A stretch of DNA of 64,000 nucleotides, from the NCBI GenBank assembly GCA_044225175.1, contig JBGAJA010000002.1, positions 408,991 through 472,990 of the forward strand, written 5' to 3'. Below, in pieces: positions 43,248 through 59,717 of the stretch (within the stretch, counting starts at the first letter, position 1; the number at the start of each line of letters is the position of its first letter). The position numbers and the translations under genes are program-made. This DNA is from Candidatus Omnitrophota bacterium (GTDB taxonomy: Bacteria > Omnitrophota > Gorgyraeia > Zapsychrales > Fredricksoniimonadaceae). The notes under the pieces were generated by a model. The model saw only the letters and a list, made by a program, of their open reading frames with translations. It had not been told where the DNA came from and did not search any database.

Positions 43248-43823
43248 ATGACAACTACAGCCCAATTAAAATACTTCGATGAATTAAAACGTACTATGGA
43301 ATGGTTGGCCCAGCAGCCAAAGGTTATGTTTGTCGGACAAACAGTCGCTGGTCCTGGAACATTTATGTTTCAAACCTTACGAGATTGCCCTAAAGATAGG
43401 GCCCTTGAAATGCCAATCAATGAAAGTTTTCAAATGCAGTTTACAATTGGCATGGCCCTGGCGGGATATATTCCTGTATCTGTTTATCCTAGACAGAATT
43501 TTCTGTTATTAGCGACGGGAGATATGGCCAACATGCTGGATAAAATCCCTGATATCAGTGAAGGCAAATGGCCCCTTAAAGTGATCATTAGAGTAGCCAT
43601 TGGTCCTGATTTTCCCGTTCATCCAGGGCATCAACACATTGGAAATTTTGCCCAGGCGTTCAAGAAGTTATTTGACCATATTGAGGTCGTTGAACTCAAT
43701 CGTGCAGAAGATATTTTTCCAGCTTATAAGAATGCTTTGGAACGCACGGATGGAAAAGCAACGTTAATCATTGAGCATGGTAATTATTACAACGAAGAAT
43801 ATTATGCTAAGCATGCAGCGTAA
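43248..43823 (+). CDS. TPP-dependent enzyme, Pyr-domain subunit (split transketolase/E1-beta-like).
   Basis: Pyrimidine-binding-domain-like sequence (PINESFQMQFTIGMALAG), directly downstream of the PP-domain subunit. Confidence 0.5.
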   Translation: MTTTAQLKYFDELKRTMEWLAQQPKVMFVGQTVAGPGTFMFQTLRDCPKDRALEMPINESFQMQFTIGMALAGYIPVSVYPRQNFLLLATGDMANMLDKIPDISEGKWPLKVIIRVAIGPDFPVHPGHQHIGNFAQAFKKLFDHIEVVELNRAEDIFPAYKNALERTDGKATLIIEHGNYYNEEYYAKHAA

Positions 43824-44739
43824 CAGCCGTATTTTTATTGTTGGCCATCAGGATAGTTTAGAAAATTCTCTTTGGAATTATTTCTCATCTAAAGGCTTTT
43901 CTCACGTTTACACAAATAGTCGTAATCGTTTGGATGTTGTTTCTCAGGCAAAAGTAGAGAAGTTTTTTAAAGACGTGTGTCCTGAGTATGTTTTTTTAGG
44001 TTCAGTACGATCTGGTGGTATTGTGGCCAATCAAAAGCATGCTGCAGAATTCATTTATGAGAATCTTCAATCTCAGAGCAATGTTATTCATAGTGCCTAT
44101 AAAGCAGGCGTAAAGAAATTTGTTTTCTTTGGTGCCTCCTGTGCATATCCCAAAGAAGCTAAGCAGCCAATCAAAGAAGATTCACTTTTAACAGGGTTAA
44201 TGGAAGAAACGAGTGAACCTTATTCAGTTGCTAAATTAGCTGGAATCAAAATGTGTCAGACTTATCGCAAACAGTATGGGTTAGATGCCATGGTGATAGT
44301 TCCGGCCACTCTTTATGGCCCAGGAAGCGATACCAATCTTGAAACAGCTCATGTCATGGGAGCTCTGATGGCCAAATTTCATAAGGCAGTCAGTGAGAAT
44401 CAAAAAGAAGTGCAAGTGTGGGGCACAGGTAAGGCACGACGAGAATTCTTATATGTTGATGATTTTGTGAATGGCGTTCTTTTTTTGATGAAGAATTATA
44501 AGGGTGATGAAATTATTAATTTGGGTGTTGGATCAGATATCACCATTTCTCAGTTAGCTCACCTTATGTCCAAAATGACAGCATTTAAGGGTAAGATTAT
44601 TTTCGATCGAACTAAGCCTGATGGCACTATGCGTAAACTATTGAACAGTAATCGTGTTCGCAATTTAGGATGGAAGCCCAAGGTTGATTTGGAAATAGGG
44701 ATTCGTAAGACATATCAATGGTATAAAAATTTATCATAA
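43813..44739 (+). CDS. GDP-L-fucose synthase (Fcl/ColC)-like bifunctional epimerase/reductase. The ORF track starts at a TTG at 43771.
   Basis: SDR with a YSVAK catalytic motif and LYGPGSD, resembling GDP-4-keto-6-deoxymannose 3,5-epimerase/4-reductases. Confidence 0.6.
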   Translation: MQRNSRIFIVGHQDSLENSLWNYFSSKGFSHVYTNSRNRLDVVSQAKVEKFFKDVCPEYVFLGSVRSGGIVANQKHAAEFIYENLQSQSNVIHSAYKAGVKKFVFFGASCAYPKEAKQPIKEDSLLTGLMEETSEPYSVAKLAGIKMCQTYRKQYGLDAMVIVPATLYGPGSDTNLETAHVMGALMAKFHKAVSENQKEVQVWGTGKARREFLYVDDFVNGVLFLMKNYKGDEIINLGVGSDITISQLAHLMSKMTAFKGKIIFDRTKPDGTMRKLLNSNRVRNLGWKPKVDLEIGIRKTYQWYKNLS

Positions 44740-44750
44740 GAAAGGAATGT

Positions 44751-45683
44751 ATGAAAATTTTAGTCACCGGCGCCGCAGGTTATATCGGCTCAATTTTTGT
44801 TCCACGTTTATTGCAAGAAGGACATGAAGTCATCGCTTTAGATAATTTTATGTATAATCAAAGTTCGCTGTTAGATGTTTGTTATCATGATAAATTGACT
44901 GTTGTCCGAGGAGATACGCGTGATAAACAGGTGATGACGAAATTGATGAAGGACGCTGATGCGATCTTTCCCTTAGCGTGTTTAACGGGTGCTCCTTTAT
45001 GTGCGAAAGATCCAGTAGGTGCCCAAACTATTCTTTTGGATGCCGTTAATATGATCATTCAATTACGTAGTAAAGACCAAAGGATTATTTTCCCAACAAC
45101 GAATAGTGGTTATGGCGTTGGAGAGAAGGGCAAACATTGCACAGAAGAAACAACGCTTCGTCCAATTTCTTTGTATGGAAAACTAAAGGTTGATGCTGAG
45201 AATGCTATTTTGGATGCTGGAAACTCGATCACATTTCGTTTAGCTACCGCTTTTGGTGTAGCTCCTAGAATGCGTTTGGATTTATTGGTCAATGATTTCG
45301 TTTATCGAGCAGTATATGATCGATTTGTGGTTCTATTTGAAGCCCATTTCAATAGAAATTTTATTCATGTTCGTGATATCTCAAAAGCTTTCATCCATGG
45401 ATTGAATAATTTTGATAAAATGAAGAACCAGCCATATAACGTTGGACTGAGTGATGCGAATTTGACAAAATTACAGCTATGTCAGGAAATAAAGAAATTC
45501 GTCCCTGATTTTTATTTTGTGGAAGCAACCATTGGCGAAGATCCGGATAAACGGGATTACATTGTTAGTAATGAAAAGATTGAGAAAACAGGGTTCAAGC
45601 CTGATGTGAGTCTCCAAAAAGGAATTCAAGAGTTAATCAAGGCTTATCAAGTTATCAAGAGAAATCAATATGCCAATATCTAA
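44751..45683 (+). CDS. NAD-dependent epimerase/dehydratase (SDR).
   Basis: VTGAAGYIGS Rossmann motif and YGKLK catalytic motif. Confidence 0.7.
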   Translation: MKILVTGAAGYIGSIFVPRLLQEGHEVIALDNFMYNQSSLLDVCYHDKLTVVRGDTRDKQVMTKLMKDADAIFPLACLTGAPLCAKDPVGAQTILLDAVNMIIQLRSKDQRIIFPTTNSGYGVGEKGKHCTEETTLRPISLYGKLKVDAENAILDAGNSITFRLATAFGVAPRMRLDLLVNDFVYRAVYDRFVVLFEAHFNRNFIHVRDISKAFIHGLNNFDKMKNQPYNVGLSDANLTKLQLCQEIKKFVPDFYFVEATIGEDPDKRDYIVSNEKIEKTGFKPDVSLQKGIQELIKAYQVIKRNQYANI

Positions 45684-47184
45684 AATCGACGCACTATTCA
45701 TTCATCCGAATGCTTCCAAGAAAATCTATCAAGATTTAGCCAAAGATTTTTCTGCAATTGAACCTCCCATTTGGGCGGGAATGCTGGCTAATCATTGTCG
45801 AATTAAAGGATTTTCAGTCAATATTCTAGATTGCGAAGCTTTGCATTTATCTGAAGAACAGTCCTCGCAACACATCATTGACGAGCGTCCTAAACTTGCC
45901 TGTTTTGTTGTCTATGGGCAACAGCCTTCTGCCAGTTCCCAGAACATGGAGGGGGCTCTTGCGGTTGCTCAGATGGTTAAAGATATGAACGCAGATATCA
46001 AGATTCTTTTTGTAGGCGGTCATATTGCAGCGTTATCCAGAGAAGTCTTGGAGAAACATTCATGTGTTGATTTCGTTTGTCAGAACGAAGGCGTTTATAC
46101 CATTTCCAATTTATTAAAAACAAACCTTAGCGATCATTTAGATAAAGTGCTGGGTCTAGGCTACAGAAAAGATGGCGGGATCATTTTGAATCCTCCCTCG
46201 CCCATTGTAGAGAAAGCAGATCTCCCAAAAGAAATGCCGGGTATTGCTTGGGATTTACTACCTATCAAGAATTATCGTACAGCCCTTTGGCATTCTTATC
46301 CTAATAACTCACAACGTCAGCCTTTTGCGGCATTGTATACGAGTCTTGGCTGCCCGATGAAATGTTCTTTTTGTATGATTAACATTATTAATCGCCAGGA
46401 AAATGAATACTCTGATGGGTCAGCTGTGTTTCGTTACTGGGATCCTGAACATATCATTAAAGAGTTTGATTTCTTTGCTTCTCAAGGGATCACTAATATT
46501 AAAATTGCTGATGAACTCTTTGTTCTAAACGCCAATCATTTCATGAAGCTTTGCGAATTAATTATTGCTCGAGGTTATAAATTTAACATTTGGTGTTATT
46601 CAAGGGTGGATACAGTTAAAGATCATTTCCTCGCTACTTTAAAGAAGGCTGGGGTTAATTGGTTAGCCTTGGGAATCGAAAGCGGAAATACCAGAGTTCG
46701 TAAAGATGTGACTAAAGGCCGTTTTGAAGATGTTGATATTCGATCCGTTGTTAATAAAATTCGTGCCCATGGGATAAATGTCATAGGTAATTATATTTTT
46801 GGTTTGCCTGAAGATGATTTCGAAAGCATGCAGATGACCCTAGACTTAGCTATCGAGATGAACACGGAAGAAGCTAATTTTTATTCAGCGATGGCTTATC
46901 CAGGAAGCCCTTTGCATGGGATTGCAAGAAAAGAAGGTTGGAAATTACCAGAAACATACAGTGGGTACTCTCAGCATTCCTATAATTGTCAACCCCTACC
47001 AACCAAATATCTGACTTCTGCTCAAGTTTTAGGTTTTAGAGACGAGGCCTGGATGAAATACCATACCAACCATAATTTTCTAGATTTGCTTAAGACCAAA
47101 TTTGGTCAGATAGCTGTAGATGAAACTTTAAAATCTACTCAAATTAAACTTAAACGTAAGATTTTAGAAGGCGTGAGTGTCTAA
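45670..47184 (+). CDS. B12-binding radical SAM enzyme (class B; likely sugar C-methyltransferase or epimerase).
   Basis: N-terminal cobalamin-binding-like region and the radical-SAM CxxxCxxC (CPMKCSFC). Confidence 0.75.
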   Translation: MPISKIDALFIHPNASKKIYQDLAKDFSAIEPPIWAGMLANHCRIKGFSVNILDCEALHLSEEQSSQHIIDERPKLACFVVYGQQPSASSQNMEGALAVAQMVKDMNADIKILFVGGHIAALSREVLEKHSCVDFVCQNEGVYTISNLLKTNLSDHLDKVLGLGYRKDGGIILNPPSPIVEKADLPKEMPGIAWDLLPIKNYRTALWHSYPNNSQRQPFAALYTSLGCPMKCSFCMINIINRQENEYSDGSAVFRYWDPEHIIKEFDFFASQGITNIKIADELFVLNANHFMKLCELIIARGYKFNIWCYSRVDTVKDHFLATLKKAGVNWLALGIESGNTRVRKDVTKGRFEDVDIRSVVNKIRAHGINVIGNYIFGLPEDDFESMQMTLDLAIEMNTEEANFYSAMAYPGSPLHGIARKEGWKLPETYSGYSQHSYNCQPLPTKYLTSAQVLGFRDEAWMKYHTNHNFLDLLKTKFGQIAVDETLKSTQIKLKRKILEGVSV

Positions 47185-48185
47185 TGATCATTTCTCGTAC
47201 ACCCTTTAGGGTATCTTTTTTTGGCGGCGGAACAGATTATCATGGCTGGTATCACTCGAATAAAGGGGCGGTTCTTGCCACAACGATTGATAAATATTGT
47301 TATATCACTTGTCGCTATTTACCTCCTTTTTTTGAACACAAATCACGCATTATATATTCCAAGATGGAACATGTTCAAAAATCGATCAATGAAATTGATC
47401 ACCCTTCCGTTAGAGAAGTATTACGATATTTGAAGATTCATCAGGGTATTGAAATCCACCATGATGGCGATTTACCTGCTCGAACAGGTTTAGGCTCCAG
47501 TTCTTCTTTCACGGTGGGTTTGTTGAATTCTTTATATGCTCTCAAAGGTCAAATGGTCACCAAAGAACAATTGGCCAACGAAGCCATTTATATTGAACAC
47601 GAAATGATTAAAGAAAATGTGGGATGTCAGGACCAGACTTTGGCAGCACACGGAGGGTTTAATCTGATTGAATTTGGGGGGCCGAATCACTTAAGAGTTC
47701 AACCGCTTACAATTTCCATAGATAAACTTAATTTATTACAAAGTCATTTGATGTTGTTTTTCACTGGTTTTTCCAGAACAGCTTCTCAAATTGCTTTGCA
47801 TCAGATCAAGAACATTCCCAACAAGAAAAAAGAATTACAGCGTATGTATGAAATGGTTTATGAGGCAGTTGAGATTCTTAATGGAAAGAATATTGTTAAA
47901 TTTGGCCGCCTTTTAGATGAAAGTTGGAAATTAAAGCGCACGCTTTCTGATAAGATCTCAACAGAACATATTGATGACCTTTATAAAACTGCAATTCGTG
48001 CTGGTGCTCAAGGCGGAAAACTCTTAGGGGCAGGTGGAGGAGGATTTATACTTTTTTTTGTTGAACCTCATAAACAAGAAAAAGTACGCCAATCGTTAAA
48101 AAAGTTAGTTGAAGTCCCTATTAAGTTTGAAAACCTTGGTAGTCAGATCATTTTCTTTCAACCTGCAACCGGTATTGTTAAATAA
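47184..48185 (+). CDS. hddA: GHMP kinase, D-glycero-alpha-D-manno-heptose 7-phosphate kinase (HddA)-like.
   Basis: N-terminal RTPFRVSFFGGGTDY and the GHMP motif PARTGLGSSSS. Confidence 0.7.
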   Translation: MIISRTPFRVSFFGGGTDYHGWYHSNKGAVLATTIDKYCYITCRYLPPFFEHKSRIIYSKMEHVQKSINEIDHPSVREVLRYLKIHQGIEIHHDGDLPARTGLGSSSSFTVGLLNSLYALKGQMVTKEQLANEAIYIEHEMIKENVGCQDQTLAAHGGFNLIEFGGPNHLRVQPLTISIDKLNLLQSHLMLFFTGFSRTASQIALHQIKNIPNKKKELQRMYEMVYEAVEILNGKNIVKFGRLLDESWKLKRTLSDKISTEHIDDLYKTAIRAGAQGGKLLGAGGGGFILFFVEPHKQEKVRQSLKKLVEVPIKFENLGSQIIFFQPATGIVK

Positions 48186-48193
48186 TTTAATCC

Positions 48194-48925
48194 ATGAAGA
48201 CCCTAAAAGATACAGATGTGGTGATTCTAGCAGGAGGTTTGGGTAAAAGGCTTCAGTCTGTGACGGGCGGTTCACAGAAGATCCTTGCTCAGATTGATGG
48301 TAAACCTTTTATTAGCATCTTAATTGACTATCTTGCAGCCCAAGGTGCTTCGCGCTTTATCTTATGCACTGGCCATGATGCAAAGAATGTTGAAGAGACG
48401 TTAGCTAATGCCCACAGAGGACTCACTGTTTTATTTTCCAGAGAAGATGAACCTTTGGGTACGGGGGGAGCAATTAAAAAAGGGGCAGGCTTAGTTGAAA
48501 GCGACTTATTTCTGGCTATGAATGGAGATTGTTTTTGTGTGATTGATTATAATCGTATGATTCAAGAGCATCAAATGAACAAAGCCCAAGCCACTATTGC
48601 AATAACACAAATTGCAGATGCTCGAGAATATGGAACAATTGAAATTAATTCGAATAAAGAAATTATTACTTTTAAAGAAAAACAACCAATCTTGCAAAAA
48701 GCTTTGATCAACACTGGTACATATTGTTTGAATCGAAATATATTTAATGTAGGGGTGGGTTCTAAACCCACCCAAGGAAAATTTTCCATCGAATACGATT
48801 TTTTCCCTTATTTGGTTGGGAAAGGTTTTTTTGGGTTTGAAGTAGAAAATAAATTTATAGACATCGGTACGCCTGAGAGATATCAATGGGCGCAACAACA
48901 TTTAGCAGGATTAAATGGAAAATAA
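48194..48925 (+). CDS. hddC: Sugar-1-phosphate nucleotidyltransferase, D-glycero-alpha-D-manno-heptose 1-phosphate guanylyltransferase (HddC)-like.
   Basis: N-terminal VVILAGGLGKRL. The gene carries a half REP (48749-48773) in frame. Confidence 0.65.
   Translation: MKTLKDTDVVILAGGLGKRLQSVTGGSQKILAQIDGKPFISILIDYLAAQGASRFILCTGHDAKNVEETLANAHRGLTVLFSREDEPLGTGGAIKKGAGLVESDLFLAMNGDCFCVIDYNRMIQEHQMNKAQATIAITQIADAREYGTIEINSNKEIITFKEKQPILQKALINTGTYCLNRNIFNVGVGSKPTQGKFSIEYDFFPYLVGKGFFGFEVENKFIDIGTPERYQWAQQHLAGLNGK
48749..48773. repeat. Partial family-A REP (first hairpin only), in frame in the hddC-like gene.
   Basis: The sequence is gtaggggtgggttctaaacccaccc. It translates as VGVGSKPTQ, the same peptide as the leuS insertion. 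Confidence 0.7.
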
Positions 48926-48938: not shown

Positions 48939-50120
48939 ATGGATTTTAATAAAACGACAGCCATTCGTGAAGGCCAGGAAGCTAAAAAAGCTGGTTACAA
49001 AGTCCCCTTTGGAACTGTTTCTATCACACAAAAAGCAGAACAACTTATAGCGGAATCTCTTCGTACAAAATGGGTCACTAAGGGTGCGTACGTCGCAGAA
49101 TTTGAGTCAAAATTTGCCGCTCTTTTTGGTGTCAAGCATGGTATTGCTGTTTCCAGTGGAACGGATGCGGATGCCATTGCGTGTGCTGTTCTCTATGATT
49201 TTGGCGCACAACGTGGAGATGAGATTATTATTCCAGCTCTGACATTTGTAGCGACAGGAAATGCTGTGTTACAGGCAGGTTTTAAGCCGGTGTTTGTGGA
49301 TGTTAATCGTGAAACTTTAAACATTGATCCAGTTAAAATTGAAGCCGTCATCACAAGCAAAACCCGCGCGATTATGCCTGTGCATTTGATGGGCAAGCCA
49401 GCTGCAATGGACCAGATTATGGCGATTGCCAAGAAATATAAACTTCATGTGATTGAAGATGCGGCAGAGGCTCATGGGGCAGAATATAAAGGCAAAAAGA
49501 TTGGTGCTATCGGAGATATGGCATGCTTTTCATTGTATGCTGCACATATTATTACTTCCATTGAAGGAGGTATGATTATTACAAACAATGACCAAATGGC
49601 TGAAGCTGCCAAATCATTGCGTAATCATGGAATAGACGGTAAGTTTCGTTTCAAACGAATAGGATTTTCGGCCAAGATGAATGAAATTGAAGCGGCTGTT
49701 GGGTTAGGTAATATTGATATTTTTCATGAGATACTCGAAAAACGTCGACGTAATGTTAGATATTTGATTAAGCACTTTGCCCCTTTTGAAAAATATTTCT
49801 GGTATTTAAAAGAAGATGCTTACGAGGTCTTAGGACCACACGCATTTTCCATGATTCTAAAGCCCGGACTTAATTTCACTAAAGATGAATTCGTGACATA
49901 CCTTGAACGAGAGGGTGTGGATTCACGAAATTTATTTTATTCCATTCCTACCCAAACTCCCAGTTATGAATTCATGGGATATAAGCTTGGTGATTTTCCT
50001 GAAACAGAATATTGTTCTGATCATGGAACGCATATTGGCTGCCATCAAGACATTGAATTATCCCATTGTGATTATGCCATTGAGACAGTCGTTAAATTTT
50101 TAAAAAGCAAAGGTTATTAA
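48939..50120 (+). CDS. DegT/AHBA-synthase-fold sugar 3-dehydratase (ColD/E1-like), with His in place of the PLP lysine. The ORF track ATG is at 48915.
   Basis: AAT-fold. The active-site segment CFSLYAAHIITSIEGG has His where aminotransferases have Lys. Compare the paralog at 55088, which has SFYPTKSLG. Confidence 0.5.
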   Translation: MDFNKTTAIREGQEAKKAGYKVPFGTVSITQKAEQLIAESLRTKWVTKGAYVAEFESKFAALFGVKHGIAVSSGTDADAIACAVLYDFGAQRGDEIIIPALTFVATGNAVLQAGFKPVFVDVNRETLNIDPVKIEAVITSKTRAIMPVHLMGKPAAMDQIMAIAKKYKLHVIEDAAEAHGAEYKGKKIGAIGDMACFSLYAAHIITSIEGGMIITNNDQMAEAAKSLRNHGIDGKFRFKRIGFSAKMNEIEAAVGLGNIDIFHEILEKRRRNVRYLIKHFAPFEKYFWYLKEDAYEVLGPHAFSMILKPGLNFTKDEFVTYLEREGVDSRNLFYSIPTQTPSYEFMGYKLGDFPETEYCSDHGTHIGCHQDIELSHCDYAIETVVKFLKSKGY

Positions 50121-50129: not shown

Positions 50130-51119
50130 ATGAGTTCTTCATCAAAGATCAAGAAAGTCTTGGTTATTGGTGGGACAGGTTACATCGGCTCCCATATGAC
50201 AAAATTACTTCTGGAGAAGGGGTGTAAGTCTATTATTTTTGACCGGGCCAATCTAAAACCATCCCAGAAATTACCTAATGTCAAAATTATTAAAGGGGAT
50301 CTAAGAAAATATAAAGATATCAGTTTAGCCTTACAGGAAACCCAACCAGATCTCATTATGTATTTTGCCGGTCTTATTGTTGCCCCTGAGTCCAATGTAA
50401 AACCTGTGCAATACCTGGATCATAATGTATTGGGAGCAGTGAATTTACTTAAAGCGATGCAGGAAACAGGAATCAAAAGAATTATTTTCTCATCGACAGC
50501 GGCTGTTTATGGAAACGCTTCTAATAAGACCATTACTGAGGAAACTCCATTGCTGCCGATTAATACCTATGGTTATACAAAATTGATGTTTGAACAAATG
50601 TTAGAACGTGTGGCTTGTGCAGATCAAGAATTTGCTTATATCGCTTTGCGATATTTTAATACCGCAGGGGCCCATCATTCCGGAACGTTAGGGGAATGCC
50701 ATGAACCTGAAACACATCTGATTCCTAACGTCTTACGCACGATCAAAGGTCAATTGAAAGAACTCGTTATTTACGGCGATGATTATCCGACAAAAGATGG
50801 CACCTGCATCCGGGATTATATTCATATTGAGGATCTTGTTGAAGCGCATTGGTTAGCCATACAGGCCTTAGGTAGGGGATTATCTAATCAAGCCATTAAT
50901 CTAGGAACAGGGCATGGTTATTCTGTAAAAGAAATTATCGCTGTGTCGGAAAAAATTACAGGAGCTAAGGTGAATGTGCGAATTTCTGATCGACGACCTG
51001 GAGATCCTGCAGTCTTAGTCGCTTCTTATAAAAAGGCCAAGAAATTTTTGGGATGGCAGCCTAAAAGAAATCTCACTCAAATTATCCATTCCGCTTGGCA
51101 ATGGGAGAAAAACTTGTGA
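50130..51119 (+). CDS. galE: UDP-glucose 4-epimerase.
   Basis: GGTGYIGSH, the YGYTK catalytic motif, and GalE-like length and sequence. Confidence 0.85.
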   Translation: MSSSSKIKKVLVIGGTGYIGSHMTKLLLEKGCKSIIFDRANLKPSQKLPNVKIIKGDLRKYKDISLALQETQPDLIMYFAGLIVAPESNVKPVQYLDHNVLGAVNLLKAMQETGIKRIIFSSTAAVYGNASNKTITEETPLLPINTYGYTKLMFEQMLERVACADQEFAYIALRYFNTAGAHHSGTLGECHEPETHLIPNVLRTIKGQLKELVIYGDDYPTKDGTCIRDYIHIEDLVEAHWLAIQALGRGLSNQAINLGTGHGYSVKEIIAVSEKITGAKVNVRISDRRPGDPAVLVASYKKAKKFLGWQPKRNLTQIIHSAWQWEKNL

Positions 51120-52075: not shown

Positions 52076-52099
52076 TTTGGGTTATCGGGAGATAAGGAA

Positions 52100-53212
52100 T
52101 TGAATCATGTGTTATTTATCAATCATGTGTCTTTTTTAGGGGGGGCCGAACGGAATTTATTATCACTCATTGAAGCGTTAGACCAAAAGTTCAAAGTTTT
52201 TTTTATTTGTCAAGAACCTGGGCCTTTACCTGAAGCCTTAAAAAAAATAGGTGTAGTAGTTGAGTACATGCCATTAGGGGCATGGCGTAAGCCGATCAAT
52301 ATTATTAAGAATCATTTTACAGTTCGAAAGATCCGTCAATTTTGCAAGAGTCATCGGATCAATCTCATCTGCAGTAATAATTATCGGGTTAGTTCCTATG
52401 CCGTTCTTCCGGCCCAGTCGTTAAAGATTCCTTCCATCACAATCATTCAAGATTTTGTGGATGAAAATAAATTGCGTAAATTTAATGCTTTTGAATCAAC
52501 AGCGTTAATCACTGTTTCCGATAGTGTGACTAACTCCATTAACAAGTTTTACAAGAAAAAAATTTATAGAATCTATAATGGACTGGACACTCATCAATAC
52601 ATTCAAGAGGCAGGTATTCATGAGAAATTAGGTGAGGAATTCCCAATATTGAGAAATAAGCGTGTGATAGGAATGATCGCTCAAATTGTTCCTGTGAAAG
52701 GCCATAAATTCTTCTTTAGAGCAATGAAAAGAATTGCGGATGAATTTGATGATGTCATGTTCTTTATCATTGGAGACTCCCCGCAAGTGGCAAAAGCATC
52801 ACTGATAGAAATTAAAAATTATGTCACTGCACTCCATTTAGAAGATAAAGTTATTTTTGCTGGTCCGCGGGAGGACGTTCCGAATTTACTCAAATCTTTT
52901 GATCTGCTGGTTGTGCCATCATCATTGGAACCTTTCGGTAGAGTTGTTATTGAATCCATGGTTTTAAGAGTGCCTGTTGTCGCTACAATGAGCGGAGGAC
53001 CATCGGAGATTATTCAACACGATACTAATGGATTATTGGTGCCTGTAGATAATGAACAAAGTTTAACTAATGCTGTCCGGATATTATTAACAGATGACAC
53101 CAAGCGAAAGATGTTTGGTGAAAAAGCGCAAAAGCATATCCAAGATCAGTTTGACCTGAAACATACCGTTGTCCATATTAACCAAGTTGTGTCAGAGGTT
53201 TTATCCAAATGA
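52100..53212 (+). CDS. Glycosyltransferase family 4.
   Basis: GT-B fold with the GT4 C-terminal motif (EPFGRVVIESM). Confidence 0.75.
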   Translation: MNHVLFINHVSFLGGAERNLLSLIEALDQKFKVFFICQEPGPLPEALKKIGVVVEYMPLGAWRKPINIIKNHFTVRKIRQFCKSHRINLICSNNYRVSSYAVLPAQSLKIPSITIIQDFVDENKLRKFNAFESTALITVSDSVTNSINKFYKKKIYRIYNGLDTHQYIQEAGIHEKLGEEFPILRNKRVIGMIAQIVPVKGHKFFFRAMKRIADEFDDVMFFIIGDSPQVAKASLIEIKNYVTALHLEDKVIFAGPREDVPNLLKSFDLLVVPSSLEPFGRVVIESMVLRVPVVATMSGGPSEIIQHDTNGLLVPVDNEQSLTNAVRILLTDDTKRKMFGEKAQKHIQDQFDLKHTVVHINQVVSEVLSK

Positions 53213-54045
53213 AGATCAGTGGTTTTACCATTGTCCGAAATGCTATTAAGCTCAGATACCCCGTGATTGAATCCATCCATTCGATTCTATCGATTTGTGA
53301 CGAATTTATTATCAATGTGGGAGATTCACAAGATGGCACCTTGGAATTAATTCAGGGAATGGCTAATCCTAAAATCAAGATTATTCAGACAGAATGGAAC
53401 ATGGAGCAGGGGGCTGCAGTGCTTTCCGAGCAAACCAATAGAGCACTTAAAGAGTGTACAGGAGATTGGGCTTTTTATTTACAAACGGATGAAGTCATTC
53501 ATGAACATGATTTACCAAGACTTGTCAAATGTATGAAGGAGAACTTAAATAATCTTGAGGTGGACGCATTAAGATTTAAATGGTTTCATTTTTATGGAAG
53601 TCATTACCGATATCGGATTGATCGAGGATGGTATCAAAAACAAGATCGAATAGTCCGTAATAATGGAACGATTCGTTCCCTGGGGGATGCCTTTGCTTTT
53701 GAAAGATATGATGGAAAACCTTTAAGATCTAAAAATACAGGATGTTTTCTGTATCATTATGGATGGGTCCAAATCCCCGAAGATATGGCCAAACGAAAAG
53801 AAAATGCTCAGGCGATTGGTTATGCGGCAGATATGGTCAAAAGTACAAAGCATGATTATGGTGATTTAAATCGTTTTCCTATTTATTTTGGAACACATCC
53901 TTTAGTGATGAGAGATTTAATCAGTTCTCATCCTCTGAGCCAGCAAGACTTAAGAGAAATACATCAAAAACATTGGTGGAATCCGCTTAGAATTTTTCAA
54001 GTACGCTATAAAACGGGAAGACGCATTAAAGAAAAGATTCTATGA
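53209..54045 (+). CDS. Putative glycosyltransferase (GT2-like) or hypothetical.
   Basis: N-terminal GT-A-like segment (FTIVRNAIKLRYPVIESIHS). Weak evidence. Confidence 0.35.
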   Translation: MKISGFTIVRNAIKLRYPVIESIHSILSICDEFIINVGDSQDGTLELIQGMANPKIKIIQTEWNMEQGAAVLSEQTNRALKECTGDWAFYLQTDEVIHEHDLPRLVKCMKENLNNLEVDALRFKWFHFYGSHYRYRIDRGWYQKQDRIVRNNGTIRSLGDAFAFERYDGKPLRSKNTGCFLYHYGWVQIPEDMAKRKENAQAIGYAADMVKSTKHDYGDLNRFPIYFGTHPLVMRDLISSHPLSQQDLREIHQKHWWNPLRIFQVRYKTGRRIKEKIL

Positions 54046-55091
54046 AGATTCTTATTATTAATTCCTTTGGTATTGGGGATGTTCTTTTTACCACCCCATT
54101 GGTCAGCAATTTGAGGCTGGCTTATCCCGATGCTTTTATTGGTTATATTGCCAATCTTCGGGCTCTTCCTGTTTTGCAAAATAATCCCAAGATTAATCGT
54201 GTCTATGTTTATGATCGAGATGAATTTCAAAAGGATTTTTATCGTTCTTGGTTAAAGTTGTTTCAAGAGATTCGAAAAGAACAATTCGATGCGGTCTTCG
54301 ATTTTTCTTTGAATCCCTCTTTTGGTTTTTTCGCATTGATCTGTGGAATTAAACGTCGTATTGGATATGACTATCGCAACAGAGGCCGATTTTTGACAGA
54401 CAAGATTGTTTTAGAAGGCTATGAAGCTCGGCATGTGGTTGATTATTATTTAAATTTACTGAAGAAATTGGATCTGCCTACTACGTCACAGTCTTTAGAA
54501 ATATATATTGGACAAGATAGTCACCAATGGGCCCAAGAGTGGATTAAACTCAAAGGAATTGATCTACAGAAACCTTTGATTGCTGTAATTCCTGGAGGTG
54601 GAGCTAGCTGGGGTAAGAATGCCAACCAAAAGCAGTGGCCTGTCGAGCAATACGCCTCTTTAGTGGATAAAATCGTTGCAAAAACAAAGGCCACCATTAT
54701 ACTGATGGGCGATTTGAAGGATCAAAAATTGTGCCAAGAATTGACCCATCAATGTGCTTATCCCGTCTATGATGCGGTGGGTATTACAAGCCTTCACCAA
54801 ATGGCTGCTTTATTGAAATTATGTCGTTTTGCTATTGTTAATGATGGCGGTCCTTTACATGTGGCGGTGGCGGCACAAACGAAAACTGTATCAATTTTTG
54901 GTCCTGTCGACCCCTTGGTTTATGGACCTTACCAAGGAAATCAACAAGCAATTGAGCATCTCGTGATCCAGAATCATGTGCCTTGTCAGCCTTGTTACCG
55001 ACAATTTCGAAAAGCAAATTGTGATCATTTAAGTTGTTTGAATTTATTATCAGCCAATCAAGTTTTTAATCACATAGAAAGGTTATTATGA
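54042..55091 (+). CDS. ADP-heptose:LPS heptosyltransferase (GT9).
   Basis: KILIINSFGIGDVLFTTP N-terminus and the C-terminal GT9 motif (NDGGPLHVAVA). Confidence 0.8.
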   Translation: MKILIINSFGIGDVLFTTPLVSNLRLAYPDAFIGYIANLRALPVLQNNPKINRVYVYDRDEFQKDFYRSWLKLFQEIRKEQFDAVFDFSLNPSFGFFALICGIKRRIGYDYRNRGRFLTDKIVLEGYEARHVVDYYLNLLKKLDLPTTSQSLEIYIGQDSHQWAQEWIKLKGIDLQKPLIAVIPGGGASWGKNANQKQWPVEQYASLVDKIVAKTKATIILMGDLKDQKLCQELTHQCAYPVYDAVGITSLHQMAALLKLCRFAIVNDGGPLHVAVAAQTKTVSIFGPVDPLVYGPYQGNQQAIEHLVIQNHVPCQPCYRQFRKANCDHLSCLNLLSANQVFNHIERLL

Positions 55092-56188
55092 ACGTATCAT
55101 TTATTGATTTTAAACAACAAAACTTGCTAATCAAAGATGAGATTGATGCTGGATTTAAGAAGGTTTTTGAAAAAGGCGATTATATTCTTGGTGAACAAGC
55201 TCAAATCTTTGAAAAATCTTTTGCGCAATACTGTGACGTTCAATATGGGGTAGGAGTTAATTCAGGTACAGATGCCCTGCATTTAGCTCTTCAAGCCATT
55301 GATATTCAAGAAGGTGATGAAGTCATTGTTCCAACCCACACATTTATTGCAACAGCCCTATGTGTTTCCTTTTGTCGTGCTAAAGTCGTCTTCGTAGATA
55401 TTGAAGAGAAAACTTACAATATTGATCCCAAATCAATTGAAAAAGCCATCACTAAGAAAACTAAAGCCATTATTCCAGTTCACATTTATGGTCAACCTGC
55501 CAACATGGACGAGATTGTGGCGATTGCACGTAAACATGGGATAAAAGTTGTTGAAGATGCCGCGCAAGCACATGGTTCACGTTATAAAGGCAAGCGTGTC
55601 GGTTCTTTAGGAGATGTGGCTTGCTTCTCATTCTATCCGACTAAAAGTTTAGGAGCTTGTGGGGATGCTGGGATGATTGTGACTAATAATAAAGAAATTT
55701 ACGAAAAAGCCCTTATGCTCCGTGATTATGGCCGCAAAGGTCGTTATGAGCATAAGATTAAGGGAACAAATTCTAGATTAGATACTCTTCAAGCTGTAGT
55801 TCTTAATGCAAAACTCAAGCATCTTGATCAATGGAATGAAATGAGAGCTAAAAGCGCAGCTATGTATGCCAAATTATTAAGTTCTATTCCAAGTGTTGTG
55901 ACTCCAATTACTGAGAATGATCGTACACATGTTTTCCAAACATATGCTGTACGTGTGCCAAATCGAGATAAAGTTGTTGAAGCCATGAAAGCCAAAGGAA
56001 TTGGTGTATTAATTCATTATCCTATTCCTTTACATATGCAGGAAGCTTATGCGGATTTAGGGTACAAACAAGGGGATTTTCCTGTAGCAGAACATGTGGC
56101 CCAAAACATTTTAAGTCTTCCGATGTTTCCACATATAACACAAGAACAAATTGATATGGTGGTCAAGGCTTTGAAAGAATCTTTATGA
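55088..56188 (+). CDS. DegT/DnrJ/EryC1/StrS PLP-dependent sugar aminotransferase.
   Basis: PLP lysine motif (SFYPTKSLGACGDAG). Confidence 0.85.
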   Translation: MNVSFIDFKQQNLLIKDEIDAGFKKVFEKGDYILGEQAQIFEKSFAQYCDVQYGVGVNSGTDALHLALQAIDIQEGDEVIVPTHTFIATALCVSFCRAKVVFVDIEEKTYNIDPKSIEKAITKKTKAIIPVHIYGQPANMDEIVAIARKHGIKVVEDAAQAHGSRYKGKRVGSLGDVACFSFYPTKSLGACGDAGMIVTNNKEIYEKALMLRDYGRKGRYEHKIKGTNSRLDTLQAVVLNAKLKHLDQWNEMRAKSAAMYAKLLSSIPSVVTPITENDRTHVFQTYAVRVPNRDKVVEAMKAKGIGVLIHYPIPLHMQEAYADLGYKQGDFPVAEHVAQNILSLPMFPHITQEQIDMVVKALKESL

Positions 56189-57567
56189 TAAAAGCTGTAA
56201 AAAATTGCGATCAAGTCATGTTTTTTGGACTTTTGATTTTGGTGATTTTTATTCCATATTCTTCGGCAATGATTCAAGGCAGTCTGTTTCTTATTATGCT
56301 TGCTTGGTTAAGCAAGCATATTTTTTTGTGGAAAAATCCATCTACAAGGAATTCTGCTTTTGTTTTTAATTTTCCCTTCAAGAGTATTTTCCTGCCATTA
56401 GTTTTAATCAGCCTGCTTATTCTATTAACAATTCCTTGGAGCCATGCTCCTGTTTTAAGTTTAAAGAAGTTTTTCTCTCGATTCGTCCAGCAAGTTTTTT
56501 TGATGTATGTGACGGTTGAGATCATTAATTCATCCAAGCGTTTATATTTATTGATGACTATGCTTCTTTGGACACTGCTTGTAGTTAATGCCGATGTTGT
56601 TTTTCAAATATTCTCTGGCAAGAGTTTTATTTTTAGCAATCACATGATTTTTGAGAGAGTTTCTGGTCCTATGCGTCATCCTAATGATCTGGGGACTGTG
56701 TTGATCACGGTCATTCCCATCATGGTGATTTTAATGATGACAAGAAGTTTTTGGGTTCCGATTATATTTCCCCAGAAATTTCAGAAATCAATAGGGGTCT
56801 GTGTTTTTGTTTTATTGGTACTTTCTTTGATTGCTTTGGGTTTAACCTCTTCACGAGGGGCATGGGTAGGCTTTGTCGTGTCGATGGTTGGAGCTAGTAT
56901 TTATTTAAGAAAGAAGCGTTGGATCGTTATGGTTGGTCTTTTTCTTGTTTTCTTTATTTGGGTATCAGGAATACACTTTGCTAACACTCGCAGCGATATT
57001 TTTATTAAAGAAACCCATAAAGAAACCCATAAGGAAACTCCCAAAGAGGGCCCTAAAGAAACCTATAAAGAAGTGCATGAGGCCGTAGTTGAGAATAAAA
57101 GCCAGGCTCAATATCCCATTGATCAATTCTTTACTCCGTCACGGAGAATTCAATATTGGAAGACAGCGTCAAGTGTTATAAAGGAATATCCTTGGTTTGG
57201 ATGCGGCTATAATGCATATATTCAAACCCTTCTAAAATTGAATAGGGAGCCTGTCGAATATCCTCATAATGGTATTTTACACATTGCTGCAGAATTAGGC
57301 CTTATTGGACTTTTGCTGTATATATTCTTTTTTGTAGGAGTGTTTTATCAAGGATTAAAAATTTTAAAATCAGTTTCAAAACAGTATGAGATTTATTTAT
57401 TAGGAGTGAGTATATTTTTTGGCCTTATTGCGTGGCTAATTCATTGTTTTTTAGACACCCCGTGGGAATCTTTACAACTAAGCATTTTATGGTGGTTATT
57501 AATAGGTGTCTTAATGAGTTTAAATAATATCGCTGTCTCTACAAAGGTAAGTACAGGAGGGAAATAA
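56185..57567 (+). CDS. O-antigen ligase/polymerase (Wzy_C) family membrane protein, with an internal KETH tandem repeat.
   Basis: Polytopic. YPHNGILHIAAELGLIG Wzy_C motif. Confidence 0.6.
   Translation: MIKAVKNCDQVMFFGLLILVIFIPYSSAMIQGSLFLIMLAWLSKHIFLWKNPSTRNSAFVFNFPFKSIFLPLVLISLLILLTIPWSHAPVLSLKKFFSRFVQQVFLMYVTVEIINSSKRLYLLMTMLLWTLLVVNADVVFQIFSGKSFIFSNHMIFERVSGPMRHPNDLGTVLITVIPIMVILMMTRSFWVPIIFPQKFQKSIGVCVFVLLVLSLIALGLTSSRGAWVGFVVSMVGASIYLRKKRWIVMVGLFLVFFIWVSGIHFANTRSDIFIKETHKETHKETPKEGPKETYKEVHEAVVENKSQAQYPIDQFFTPSRRIQYWKTASSVIKEYPWFGCGYNAYIQTLLKLNREPVEYPHNGILHIAAELGLIGLLLYIFFFVGVFYQGLKILKSVSKQYEIYLLGVSIFFGLIAWLIHCFLDTPWESLQLSILWWLLIGVLMSLNNIAVSTKVSTGGK
57007..57075. repeat. Tandem 12-bp repeat (aaagaaacccat, about 5.7 units) encoding KETHKETHKETPKEGPKETYKEV.
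   Basis: Direct repeats seen in the sequence. They are in frame and lie in a predicted loop of the ligase-like protein. Confidence 0.7.
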
Positions 57568-58367
57568 TGGCTTTAGAATTAAGTGTGGTCATCCTAGCAA
57601 AGAATGAACAAGCCCGTATTAAAGACTGCCTTGAGAGTATTAAGGGGTGGGCCAATGAAATTATTATTGTGGATGATGGAAGCACAGATGCCACTATTTC
57701 GATAGCCAAAGAATATACGAAATCCATATTCTCCCGTCAAATGGATTTGGAAGGAAAACAAAGAAACTTTGGGGCTTCTCATGCAAGTAATGATTGGATA
57801 TTAATCCTTGATTGTGATGAACGCATGACCAAAGAGTTGAAGGAAGAGATTTCTAATTCTTTGCCTAATGCTCCCAAAGAGGTGGTTGCCTATTGGGCAT
57901 CTCAATTTAATTATTTCGGTGATATTTATTTAGAACATGGAGGATGGTCTACTCCTCATATCCGATTATACAATAAGAAGCATGTCCGCTGGTCTGAAGC
58001 TGATTTTGATGTCGTGCATCCTGGAATAAAAATCGAACCTGGGTTTAAGGGCGGTCATTTTAAAGGCAAAACGATCCACTATAGTTTCAAGAACATGGAA
58101 GACTTTATCCATAAAATTAACCGCTATTCAACTTTGGAAGCCACCAAATGGTATCTAGATAAACGTAAAATGTCTTTAGGCAAGGCTGTATGGCGTACGG
58201 TTGATCGATTCTTTAGACGTTTTGTTGGTAAAAAAGGATACAAGGATGGGTATTATGGTTTTGCAGCTGCTTTACTGAGCGGCCTTCATGAATATTTCGC
58301 ATATAGTAAGTACAAAGAAATCAAAGAAAAGGGTTATTATTTAAAGAATAAAAACAGTGGGAGTTAA
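57567..58367 (+). CDS. Glycosyltransferase family 2.
   Basis: VVILAKNEQARI...IIIVDDGSTD and an LDCDE (DxD) motif. Confidence 0.8.
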   Translation: MALELSVVILAKNEQARIKDCLESIKGWANEIIIVDDGSTDATISIAKEYTKSIFSRQMDLEGKQRNFGASHASNDWILILDCDERMTKELKEEISNSLPNAPKEVVAYWASQFNYFGDIYLEHGGWSTPHIRLYNKKHVRWSEADFDVVHPGIKIEPGFKGGHFKGKTIHYSFKNMEDFIHKINRYSTLEATKWYLDKRKMSLGKAVWRTVDRFFRRFVGKKGYKDGYYGFAAALLSGLHEYFAYSKYKEIKEKGYYLKNKNSGS

Positions 58368-58368
58368 G

Positions 58369-59121
58369 ATGGGAAACTTTTATAAAAGTCATTTGTATCA
58401 ATATTATTTTAGTTTGATGTCAACGGTCATTAAAACGGCCAGACGAAACTGTGAAAACAGAAAATTTGAGCCAGAAGTTGAGGTCTTAAAGAAAATCATA
58501 AAACCTGAAAGTATTTGTATTGATATAGGAGGAGCATATGCTCGTTATGCATTTCCTCTATCTAAGATGGTTGGCCCAAAAGGCAAAGTTTATAGTTTCG
58601 AGCCAGGCAGCTATAGTTATGGGGTGTTTTGGTGGATCAAATTTCTTTTTAATCTGCGCAATGTTGTCATCACTAAGAAAGCTGTGTCTGATTCTCCCGG
58701 ACAAATTCAATTGTGCCTGCCCCTTAAAGCCTCGGGTAAACTGGGACCTTCTCTGGCTTATATCAATACACAGAAGGAAGAGAATAATTACTGCGAAACG
58801 GTTGAAAGAATTACTTTAGATGACTTTAATAAAGAAGCAAAACTTCCTCGTTTAGATTTCATGAAGTGTGACACGGAAGGTTCAGAATTGTTGGCTTTTC
58901 GAGGAGCAAAGGGGCTTATTGAGCGATTTAGACCGCTCGTTTTGGCAGAAGTGGATGCTAACAACATGAACCGTTATCAGTTAAAACCTTCAGATATTGT
59001 TAAATTCTTTACTGATTTGAATTATCGATTGATGGTCTGGGAGAATGATCAATTTGTTCTTAAGTCTTCCGCGGATGTTTCTTCAAACTATTTCTTTGTT
59101 CCTGAGCACATGAAGTTATAA
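58369..59121 (+). CDS. FkbM-family SAM-dependent methyltransferase. The ORF track starts at a GTG at 58357.
   Basis: CIDIGGAYARYAF and CDTEGSELLAF, as in FkbM domains. Confidence 0.7.
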   Translation: MGNFYKSHLYQYYFSLMSTVIKTARRNCENRKFEPEVEVLKKIIKPESICIDIGGAYARYAFPLSKMVGPKGKVYSFEPGSYSYGVFWWIKFLFNLRNVVITKKAVSDSPGQIQLCLPLKASGKLGPSLAYINTQKEENNYCETVERITLDDFNKEAKLPRLDFMKCDTEGSELLAFRGAKGLIERFRPLVLAEVDANNMNRYQLKPSDIVKFFTDLNYRLMVWENDQFVLKSSADVSSNYFFVPEHMKL

Positions 59122-59126
59122 CTTTT

Positions 59127-59717
59127 ATGAAGATTGTTTGTTTAGATAGAGATGGCATCATCAATCAATATCCAGGTCATGGGGATTATGTTACAAGGGT
59201 TAAAGATTTCCATCTTCTTAAAGGCGTTTTAGATGGTATTAAACGTTTGAATGACGCTCAGTTTAAAGTCTTTGTTATTTCTAATCAGGCATGTGTGGGT
59301 TGTGGTATAATTTCACAAAAGAAATTAGATCAAATCACGGCTAAACTTCTTAAAGCGGCCAAACAAAAGCATGTTAAGTTCAACGGGATTTTTTATTGCA
59401 CGCATAAGCCGGATGAAGGTTGTGATTGCCGAAAGCCAAAGATAGGTAATATTAAGAAAGCATTGTCTAGTGTTGGGAGTACTCTTTCAACAGTTCGTAG
59501 TGGTTTTTTCGTCGGAGACACAGATAAGGACATTGAGGCAGGGCATAACGCAGGATTAGTAACCATTTTGGCTGAAACTGGCCGTGATCGCCTGAAAGAT
59601 TTTAAGCATAAGAAATTTAAGCCTCATTATGTAGTTTCTGATTTTAATAGAGCGGTGGAGATTATATTAAATTATGAAAATTCTCATCATTCACGCAACC
59701 GCAGGCGCAGGGCATAA
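59127..59717 (+). CDS. gmhB: D-glycero-D-manno-heptose 1,7-bisphosphate phosphatase (HAD, GmhB-like).
   Basis: HAD motif I (VCLDRDGIIN), VISNQ, and the Zn-binding CxHx...CDCRKP. Confidence 0.75.
   Translation: MKIVCLDRDGIINQYPGHGDYVTRVKDFHLLKGVLDGIKRLNDAQFKVFVISNQACVGCGIISQKKLDQITAKLLKAAKQKHVKFNGIFYCTHKPDEGCDCRKPKIGNIKKALSSVGSTLSTVRSGFFVGDTDKDIEAGHNAGLVTILAETGRDRLKDFKHKKFKPHYVVSDFNRAVEIILNYENSHHSRNRRRRA

Follow-up and report, generated by a model that had tools for sequence, protein, structure and literature searches.

Two groups of described systems come closest to the locus reported here. In Campylobacter jejuni HS:5 and HS:11, guanosine diphosphate (GDP)-linked 3,6-dideoxy-heptoses are made by a 4,6-dehydratase, a ColD-like C3-dehydratase, a C5-epimerase and a C4-reductase, as published in 2023 (PMC10440746). 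The C. jejuni enzyme Cj1427 makes a 4-keto sugar in which the C6 hydroxyl is kept, with a half-reaction that converts 2-oxoglutarate to L-2-hydroxyglutarate; combined in vitro with the HS:5 dehydratase, it converts GDP-heptose to GDP-D-glycero-3-deoxy-4-keto-heptose, and the resulting 3-deoxy-heptoses were called novel by the authors (PMC10680097). In the second group, the thiamine diphosphate (ThDP)-dependent enzymes YerE, ErwE and MyGE attach acyl groups taken from 2-oxo acids to the C4 ketone in nucleoside diphosphate-3-deoxy-4-keto sugars (PMC9306805), and AviB1/AviB2 and Pau11/12 are E1-like ThDP precedents (PMC4753412). Here we describe a gene cluster with features of both groups in a 64,000-nucleotide stretch of DNA (hereafter the window) from a Candidatus Omnitrophota bacterium (contig JBGAJA010000002.1, positions 408,991 to 472,990 of the forward strand). 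We lean, with moderate confidence, towards reading it as a conserved pathway to a 3-deoxy, 6-hydroxy higher sugar, C2-branched or extended and likely a heptose derivative, and not to the 3,6-dideoxy-heptose suggested by an earlier reading of the sequence (the original prediction). That moderate confidence is held jointly for the whole explanation, which also takes the region to be part of a conserved Omnitrophota envelope-glycan locus of the lipopolysaccharide (LPS) type, with a nine-gene module at 42634-50120 and 59127-59717.

The window proteins were compared with Pfam, NCBIfam and PDB sequences, and each gene family named in the original prediction was confirmed at or near the position assigned to it. 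The genes form a run on the + strand from about 36.8 kb to priA at 60.8 kb, overlapping or nearly abutting. The tailoring and activation genes are all on the + strand and mostly overlap or lie less than 12 nt apart.

The extended short-chain dehydrogenase/reductase (SDR) at 44751..45683 (+) matched PDB entries 6VO6/6VO8, which we take to be Cj1427, at 403 bits with 57% identity over 308 amino acids, and is a candidate Cj1427-like GDP-heptose C4-dehydrogenase. It contains the SDR signature Tyr-x3-Lys (YGKLK) and a TTNS motif with no acidic residue; 4,6-dehydratases carry Asp or Glu at the position matching this motif. No 4,6-dehydratase of the GMD/DmhA type was detected in the window, as the original prediction had also noted: the best score to the gmd model TIGR01472 was 50 bits, and none of the four SDRs was GMD/DmhA-like. 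The SDR at 41688, considered as the missing 4,6-dehydratase, proved to be a bona fide UXS (346 bits to human UXS1). The 57% identity to a solved enzyme, together with the lack of a 4,6-dehydratase in the window, indicates that the SDR at 44751 probably oxidizes C4 with the C6 hydroxyl kept. The predicted 6-deoxygenation, and with it the '3,6-dideoxy' product, is therefore not supported. The accompanying statement that no sugar of that kind had been described was also mistaken, since the GDP-3,6-dideoxy-heptoses of C. jejuni HS:5/HS:11 had been characterised in 2023 (PMC10440746).

When the DegT-family protein at 48939..50120 (+) was aligned with perosamine synthetase, FSLYAAH fell opposite FSFFGNK, placing His at the position of the Schiff-base Lys, a substitution that had been recognised correctly from the sequence. 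An alternative start lies at 48915; a database copy with 100% identity (P0001) uses the later start. The His was kept in 18 of 18 sampled Omnitrophota homologues and also in cross-phylum orthologues, and this conserved residue makes C3 deoxygenation most likely the reaction of a sugar 3-dehydratase-type enzyme dependent on pyridoxamine phosphate (PMP). The similarity was highest to GDP-perosamine synthase-type enzymes (223-225 bits), compared with 164 bits to the dehydratase E1 and 142 bits to ColD (2gms). Known enzymes related to ColD share 62-67% identity, and the 142-bit match, even with the His present, does not make the protein a ColD orthologue. Thus, PMP-type C3 deoxygenation survived from the predicted ColD/E1-type 3-dehydratase, while close orthology to ColD or E1 did not. 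An E1-type [2Fe-2S] Cys motif was not found, as the C-terminal Cys is not conserved among the homologues, and no gene for a reductase (E3) partner was present in the cassette. An E1-type mechanism (Fe-S- and E3-dependent) was rejected on these two grounds, from which we infer a ColD-like, glutamate-driven cycle. C3 deoxygenation without 6-deoxygenation is chemically feasible, because Cj1427 and the HS:5 dehydratase carry it out in vitro, and the likely intermediate is GDP-3-deoxy-4-keto-heptose.

A Fcl/ColC-like protein, the putative GDP-4-keto-sugar epimerase/reductase, is encoded at 43813..44739 (+). It scored 382 bits with the NCBIfam model for GDP-L-fucose synthase (cutoff 500) and 273 bits to the Escherichia coli GDP-fucose synthetase (GFS). 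The segments GASCAYP (Cys), YxxxK and AHV (His) are kept; their functional roles are known from E. coli GFS.

The original prediction began the region at 43813, about 1.2 kb too late, and omitted two ThDP genes of the same unit, at 42634..43245 and 43248..43823 (both +), which lie directly upstream of the Fcl-like gene and are translationally coupled. The first encodes a mini alpha subunit of 203 aa (PP domain, E1-alpha-like) with Pfam matches to E1_dh (39 bits) and TPP_enzyme_C (23 bits), and its motif consists of GDM and, after 28 aa, DNG; G125, D126 and N155 were invariant or nearly so in 39 family members. The second encodes a beta subunit of 191 aa (Pyr domain) with a match to Transket_pyr (31 bits), a 'PINE' motif containing the cofactor-activating Glu, and no transketolase C-terminal domain. 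The pair belongs to the E1/transketolase class, with the nearest solved E1 at only 27-28 bits, and shows no homology to YerE, as Pfam gave E1_dh and Transket_pyr and not TPP_enzyme_N or TPP_enzyme_M. Two subunits are also proposed for the E1 alpha/beta-like AviB1/AviB2, but the pair in the window is truncated and lacks a C-terminal domain. The beta subunit always adjoins the alpha subunit in related loci, and natural alpha-beta fusions exist, indicating that the two subunits form one enzyme. Members of the mini-E1-alpha family are rare: out of 1.84 billion proteins, 875 representatives reached E<=1e-3, although a profile search gave 3,528 members at E<=1e-10. The ThDP step is clearly part of the pathway, as shown by the translational coupling, by its co-occurrence in 83% of loci and by the way in which three ThDP architectures displace one another (described below). 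A literature search joining ThDP enzymes, GDP-heptose and branched sugars returned nothing relevant.

The gene at 45670..47184 (+) encodes a B12-binding (class B) radical S-adenosylmethionine (SAM) enzyme, as predicted, with both domains (B12-binding, PF02310, 56 bits; Radical_SAM, PF04055, 62 bits) and the motif CPMKCSFC (CX3CX2C). The NCBIfam scores were 147 bits for HpnJ (cutoff 578), 113 bits for BchE and 96 bits for AprD4, all far under the cutoffs, and the best PDB match was AprD4 at 71 bits. The enzyme may methylate, dehydrate or cyclise the sugar. Searching the literature for radical SAM, manno-heptose and cobalamin together yielded nothing relevant.

Three genes could activate a heptose. 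The GHMP kinase at 47184..48185 (+), a putative anomeric kinase of heptose 7-phosphate, had HddA as its best NCBIfam model and the heptose kinases 4n3o, 4usk and 3k85 as top PDB matches (about 124 bits). The putative sugar-1-phosphate guanylyltransferase at 48194..48925 (+) had HddC as its best model; its top PDB matches were 5xhw and 6jq8 ('putative 6-deoxy-D-mannoheptose pathway protein') at 133 bits, followed by GDP-mannose pyrophosphorylases. The protein at 59127..59717 (+), a putative GmhB-like heptose-bisphosphate phosphatase, passed the HAD-IIIA and histidinol-phosphatase-domain models and was closest to the model for the beta-anomer (ADP-heptose) phosphatase, and it may be shared with an ADP-heptose route. 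The GmhB-like gene is kept in a syntenic Omnitrophota locus (L001), and in other lineages a HAD domain is fused to the nucleotidyltransferase. Genes of the SIS/GmhA type were found in 10 related loci, including the one on the Solidesulfovibrio magneticus plasmid pDMC1. Four enzymes of the module (the nucleotidyltransferase, the Cj1427-like SDR, the perosamine-synthase-like DegT and the Fcl-like protein) belong to GDP-sugar families. Taken together, these best matches, the SIS and HAD context in relatives and the four GDP-sugar families make GDP-heptose formation the most likely outcome. The GDP-linked heptose activation branch of the original prediction was upheld in this sense; HddA-, HddC- and GmhB-like genes are indeed present as best matches, while the equivalog cutoffs were not reached.

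A genome scan with an alignment of the Cj1427-like protein found at least 595 relatives, and the best 80 loci (61-90% identity) were from Omnitrophota, metagenome-assembled genomes (MAGs) labelled 'Planctomycetales', Saganbacteria, Chloroflexota, a Methanoperedenaceae archaeon, KSB1, Nitrospina, Elusimicrobiota, Verrucomicrobiota, Kiritimatiellae, Desulfobacterota, Myxococcota and lineages of the candidate phyla radiation (CPR). Partner genes were counted by tblastn and clustering of open reading frames (ORFs) in the 41 of these best loci that had at least 6 kb on both sides. The GHMP kinase was present in 35/41 loci (copies 45-85% identical), a two-subunit ThDP enzyme of any type in 34/41, a DegT with His at the Lys position in 29/41, the nucleotidyltransferase in 29/41, the B12-radical-SAM enzyme in 21/41 and the Fcl-like enzyme in 18/41. 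The ThDP pair was thus as tightly linked to the pathway as the kinase was. Three types of ThDP enzyme were distinguished, namely full-length E1 alpha/beta (15/41), split transketolase-like (12/41) and mini (7/41), and they were mutually exclusive, with no locus carrying two types. The His-type DegT was of the window type in 22/41 loci and of a ColD-like type (FSFYYAHH or FSFYFGHQ) in 7/41. The kinase, His-type DegT, ThDP pair and radical-SAM enzyme were all present together in 14 loci. The Fcl-like gene was accompanied by the His-type DegT in 16 of its 18 loci (Fisher p ~0.04, with no correction for phylogeny), as expected for a ColD/ColC-like pair, which bears out the Fcl/ColC-like finishing enzyme proposed originally.

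The association also extended to five distant members of the mini-E1-alpha family (43-49% identity), including marine contigs. All five adjoined a beta subunit, and four adjoined an orthologous GHMP kinase (41-49%) and nucleotidyltransferase, the latter usually as a HAD-phosphatase fusion; the Cj1427-like SDR was present in three (46-59%) and the radical-SAM enzyme in two (44-48%), and an SIS/GmhA gene was found in one and a fragmentary SIS match in another. Cultured carriers were found as well. The 58.7-kb plasmid pDMC1 of S. magneticus RS-1 carries a complete cassette at 24.3-39.7 kb (L089/L093) in the order radical-SAM, NUDIX, kinase, E1-alpha, E1-beta, Fcl-like, DegT (His, FSLYVAH), Cj1427-like and nucleotidyltransferase, followed further on by lhgO and an SIS protein. 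The lhgO gene, for L-2-hydroxyglutarate oxidase, flanks the cassette on pDMC1 and has weaker homologues in 3 other loci; its position fits the by-product of Cj1427, since lhgO would recycle L-2-hydroxyglutarate. Versions of the cassette occur in Azospirillum lipoferum 4B, A. argentinense Az39, Azospirillum sp. B510 and a Sinorhizobium fredii chromid. A NUDIX gene stands beside the kinase in both S. magneticus and Azospirillum. As far as could be found, this is a widely distributed, uncharacterised cassette for sugar-nucleotide tailoring.

Several variants of the mini ThDP enzyme were seen among its homologues. Of four proteins inspected (P0293, P0271, P0274 and P0323), one is interrupted exactly at its GDM ThDP-binding motif by an intein-like insertion, two are extended at the N terminus by what looked by eye like homing-endonuclease or zinc-finger domains, and one is fused to a domain judged by eye to be of the APH/choline-kinase type. 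An alpha-beta fused mini ThDP enzyme is encoded by Synechococcus phage S-SM2 (L095, NC_015279.1, 149421-150629), by Prochlorococcus phage P-TIM68 and by a 735-kb uncultured phage; the cyanophage copy lies in a sugar cluster with a phosphoheptose isomerase, an HldE-like fragment, a carbohydrate kinase, a class II aldolase and nucleotide-sugar epimerases. At 13754-14988 of the marine contig L003/L004, the sugar locus that holds the mini-E1 pair also encodes another small ThDP pair, made up of a 249-aa Transketolase_N and a 162-aa Transket_pyr protein; HldE, a PhyH-family enzyme and a 2OG-Fe(II) oxygenase are encoded nearby.

Within Omnitrophota the module is strongly conserved. The closest homologues were named Candidatus Omnitrophica or Omnitrophota; the His-type DegT was 75-100% identical across more than 120 protein clusters in Omnitrophota, and the ThDP alpha subunit was 82-99% identical among Omnitrophota copies. 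The gene order UXS, ThDP-alpha, ThDP-beta, Fcl-like, Cj1427-like, radical-SAM, GHMP kinase, nucleotidyltransferase and DegT (His) was kept in a 1.29-Mb contig and in a JGI contig, both of which continued with GT9 (GT, glycosyltransferase), DegT (Lys), GT2, GmhB, a monogalactosyldiacylglycerol (MGDG)-synthase-like gene and priA. Both GT2 genes, GT9 and the Lys-bearing DegT were present in L001, where the MGDG-synthase-like GT28 was syntenic, whereas GT4, the Wzy ligase, FkbM and the unknown ORF at 51095 were not. The FkbM methyltransferase and most of the glycosyltransferases are outside the conserved module. The locus seems to serve a core envelope function and not to be an O-antigen that varies between serotypes. 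When the Omnitrophota-type loci L024, L026, L028 and L029 were compared with L008, L012 and L013, some had the mini ThDP pair and others a full-length E1 alpha/beta pair in the same place, which suggests displacement between enzyme types within one lineage. At 3138-4289 of L001, a transposase of the rve family (IS481/IS630-like) and a 287-aa ORF are inserted between the Fcl-like and Cj1427-like genes and break the operon. Among the MAGs titled 'uncultured Planctomycetales' (L009, L011-L013, L019, L028, L029 and others), loci were 70-88% identical to the window with the same synteny, and the taxonomic labels of these bins look unreliable.

We propose the following order of steps. The HddA-like kinase would add a phosphate at C1 of heptose 7-phosphate, made with a gmhA isomerase encoded elsewhere; the GmhB-like phosphatase would take off the C7 phosphate, and the HddC-like transferase would complete the GDP-heptose. 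The Cj1427-like SDR would then oxidize C4 while the C6 hydroxyl is kept, with 2-oxoglutarate recycling the bound NADH, and the His-type DegT, using PMP and glutamate in the manner of ColD, would remove the C3 hydroxyl to give GDP-3-deoxy-4-keto-heptose. The ThDP pair would add a C2 unit (acyl or ketol) to a keto intermediate, C4 being suggested as the site by precedent only; the B12-radical-SAM enzyme would methylate or rearrange the sugar, and the Fcl/ColC-like enzyme would epimerise and reduce it. Finally, the neighbouring glycosyltransferases would build the product into an envelope glycan.

A number of observations weigh against this proposal. All of its steps are read from sequence, and 6VO6/6VO8 are taken to be Cj1427, full-text searches with these codes having returned unrelated papers only. 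The equivalog cutoffs of the activation enzymes were missed, with the kinase at 154 bits to HddA (NF049969; cutoff 600), the nucleotidyltransferase at 139 bits to HddC (NF049965; cutoff 300) and the phosphatase at 138 bits to PRK08942 (cutoff 178) and 87 bits to the alpha-specific model (cutoff 250). No SIS/gmhA isomerase gene was present among the ORFs of the window, an absence already pointed out in the original prediction. The radical-SAM enzyme did not reach any curated functional subfamily (HpnJ, BchE, AprD4 or methyltransferases), and its orthologues, with 38-48% identity, occur in about half of the loci counted. The co-occurrence counts carry no correction for phylogeny or for horizontal transfer of whole cassettes. 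The ThDP pair showed no significant association with the His-type DegT (25/34 vs 4/7, p=0.4) and followed the kinase, not the dehydratase, in its distribution; an early role, such as precursor supply or chain extension, is conceivable. Moreover, an Fcl-like enzyme normally requires the C4 ketone itself, and if it reduces C4 here, this would bar a ThDP-installed branch at C4 of the same molecule.

The last of these observations lead to a first alternative, an unbranched GDP-3-deoxy-D-glycero-heptose, that is, a 6-hydroxy heptose analogue of colitose. The ThDP pair would then serve precursor supply only, for example forming sedoheptulose 7-phosphate from pentose phosphate and a C2 donor, and the radical-SAM enzyme would act in methylation or on another glycan. 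Such a role would suit the 12/41 loci with a split transketolase-like pair, the tracking of the kinase by the ThDP genes, the ThDP homologue fused to a kinase-like domain and the cyanophage copy that accompanies a phosphoheptose isomerase, while the Fcl-like and His-type DegT enzymes would act as ColC and ColD. However, the pairs in 22/34 loci are E1/DXS-like; enzymes of this class act by decarboxylating 2-oxo acids, so that their products would be 1-deoxy-ketoses and not sedoheptulose 7-phosphate. In addition, gmhA usually lies outside the cassette, whereas the ThDP pair is almost always inside. Sedoheptulose 7-phosphate normally comes from the housekeeping transketolase, and the C. jejuni heptose clusters need no ThDP enzyme (PMC10680097). 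We regard this alternative as unlikely, though it deserves to be kept in view.

A more specific product is also conceivable, although we consider it doubtful, namely a carbocyclic or 4-C-branched nonose of the caryose type made from GDP-heptose. The carbons of caryose can be divided into a heptose part (C1-C7) and a C2 unit derived from pyruvate (C8-C9), and its skeleton would map one-to-one on the enzymes: the 3-deoxy position on the His-type DegT, the tertiary C4 on ThDP ligation onto the 4-ketone, and the C7-C8 bond that closes the cyclopentane ring on the HpnJ/BchE-like radical-SAM enzyme; caryose also has a C9 methyl group. The biosynthetic origin of caryose was unknown according to a 2022 review (PMC9092360). 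If this reading were true, a sugar class known from a single Burkholderia species would be made in many phyla. Bradyrhizose was considered as a product and appears unrelated, because its proposed operon is built around a dTDP-glucose 4,6-dehydratase.

It is improbable that the module acts on something other than a GDP-heptose, with a hexose or other sugar being activated, C4-oxidised, 3-deoxygenated and branched to a yersiniose-type hexose. The scores of the kinase and transferase, well under the HddA and HddC cutoffs, and the lack of gmhA in the window would allow this, as would the GmhB-like protein, which best fits the beta-anomer (ADP-heptose) model and may serve the GT9 heptosyltransferase. 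Nevertheless, the top solved relatives of the kinase and transferase are heptose-pathway proteins, GDP-heptose is the substrate of the nearest characterised relative of the SDR, related cassettes contain SIS genes and HAD fusions, and four enzymes are of GDP-sugar families. The model of the original prediction, in which 4,6-dehydration, ColD-like 3-dehydration and ColC-like reduction give a 3,6-dideoxy-heptose, possibly C-methylated by the radical-SAM enzyme, is very improbable: its logic is proven in C. jejuni HS:5/HS:11 (PMC10440746), the window holds both the His-type DegT and the Fcl-like enzyme, which also co-occur in related loci, and a 4,6-dehydratase could lie outside the window, but none of the four SDRs is GMD/DmhA-like (best gmd score 50 bits; UXS at 41688, GalE at 50130 and the Cj1427-like protein at 44751), the conserved cross-phylum partner of the His-type DegT is a C4-dehydrogenase, and the ThDP pair would be left unexplained.

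The genes surrounding the module agreed with the original prediction, with FkbM, GalE, Ugd-like, UDP-HexNAc dehydrogenase (UDP, uridine diphosphate; HexNAc, N-acetylhexosamine), UXS, GT2, GT4, GT9, GT28 and ligase genes all detected. Upstream of the module, at 38987..42629 (+), lies a UDP-sugar branch of Ugd-like, UDP-HexNAc-dehydrogenase-like and UXS genes, which was kept in Omnitrophota-type loci only. Between the DegT (His) and GmhB-like genes, at 50130..59121 (+), are GalE (50130; NCBIfam cutoff passed), an unknown ORF, GT4, GT2, a GT9 heptosyltransferase, a QdtB-like 3-aminotransferase, a Wzy_C ligase, GT2 and an FkbM methyltransferase. The aminotransferase, a DegT protein at 55088-56188, bears the Lys and scored 407 bits as QdtB-like, in line with the bona fide aminotransferase predicted there; its closest solved relatives are QdtB, DesV and WbpE, which are 3-aminotransferases. 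The MGDG-synthase-like GT28 glycosyltransferase at 59674..60765 (+) is the last gene ahead of priA. The unknown ORF (51095-52075, +; 326 aa), located between galE and GT4, had no Pfam or NCBIfam match and was not present in L001; it contains a stretch 'HLDSDIM', which could be a DXD-type glycosyltransferase motif.

Elsewhere in the window, ThiF-like, ThiH-like radical-SAM (BATS domain) and ThiG genes at 663-3122 (-) mean that part of thiamine thiazole synthesis is encoded in the same window as a ThDP-dependent sugar enzyme. An IS200-like Y1 transposase fragment lies at 6620-7171 (+), and a 1003-aa ORF at 26711-29722 (+) has as its only recognised part a central class-I SAM methyltransferase domain at residues ~495-620. 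Two adjacent GGDEF diguanylate cyclases, one with a GAF domain, are encoded at 33527-35823 (+).

If the favoured reading of a 3-deoxy, 6-hydroxy, branched or extended higher sugar is true, the cassette would be a natural home for GDP-3-deoxy-D-glycero-heptoses, which have so far come only from mixed C. jejuni enzymes in vitro, and it would represent a widespread pathway that uses a 2-oxoglutarate-coupled dehydrogenase, a PMP dehydratase, a ThDP carboligase-type enzyme and a B12-radical-SAM enzyme in turn. We found no description of these four enzymes combined on one sugar nucleotide. Among the envelope genes of Omnitrophota, those of the module belong to the most conserved; it recurs in Elusimicrobiota, Chloroflexota, Nitrospinota, Verrucomicrobiota, Myxococcota, CPR lineages, an archaeon and cyanophages, and its product may be a common, unrecognised surface sugar of uncultured microbes. 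Since S. magneticus RS-1 and several Azospirillum strains are culturable, the question is open to direct testing.

Compared with the GDP-heptose pathways of C. jejuni, the module shares activation by a GHMP kinase and a guanylyltransferase, a Cj1427-type SDR, a His-type C3-dehydratase using pyridoxal phosphate or PMP, and a Fcl-family reductase. To our knowledge, the C. jejuni clusters contain neither a ThDP enzyme nor a B12-radical-SAM enzyme. Natural 3-deoxygenation in C. jejuni follows a 4,6-dehydratase, whereas the dehydratase of the window is paired with a C4-dehydrogenase; moreover, the C. jejuni C3-dehydratases are 62-67% identical to ColD (PMC10440746), compared with the 142-bit match of the His-type DegT.

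The GDP-L-colitose pathway (Gmd, ColD, ColC) has the same logic of a 4-keto GDP-sugar, PMP/His-dependent loss of the 3-hydroxyl and a Fcl-like epimerase/reductase, and ColD and the His-type DegT are alike in having no Fe-S cluster and no E3 reductase partner. It differs in that the putative substrate in the window is a heptose that keeps its C6 hydroxyl, that the 4-keto group would be made by a dehydrogenase and not by Gmd, and that the dehydratase is of another DegT lineage, nearest to the GDP-perosamine synthase type. For the radical-SAM enzyme, the best matches HpnJ, BchE and the diol dehydratase AprD4 share the B12-binding domain and CX3CX2C, although at scores far under the cutoffs; we know of no sugar-nucleotide substrate for this class, and the enzyme could equally be a plain C-methyltransferase.

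The ThDP-branching systems (YerE; ErwE and MyGE; AviB1/AviB2 and Pau11/Pau12) resemble the locus in having a 3-dehydratase and a ThDP enzyme in one sugar-nucleotide cluster. YerE and ErwE, which resemble acetolactate synthase, consist of a single chain and have CDP-3,6-dideoxy-4-keto-hexose as substrate, whereas the window has a 203 + 191 aa pair, probably acting on a GDP-linked heptose. The pairs in many related loci are of the two-subunit, E1 alpha/beta-like type that has been proposed for AviB1/AviB2 (PMC4753412), and an SDR is available here for reduction of the branch. Relative to what is known, the cassette is a variant of C. jejuni GDP-heptose tailoring and of ThDP-branched LPS sugar chemistry.

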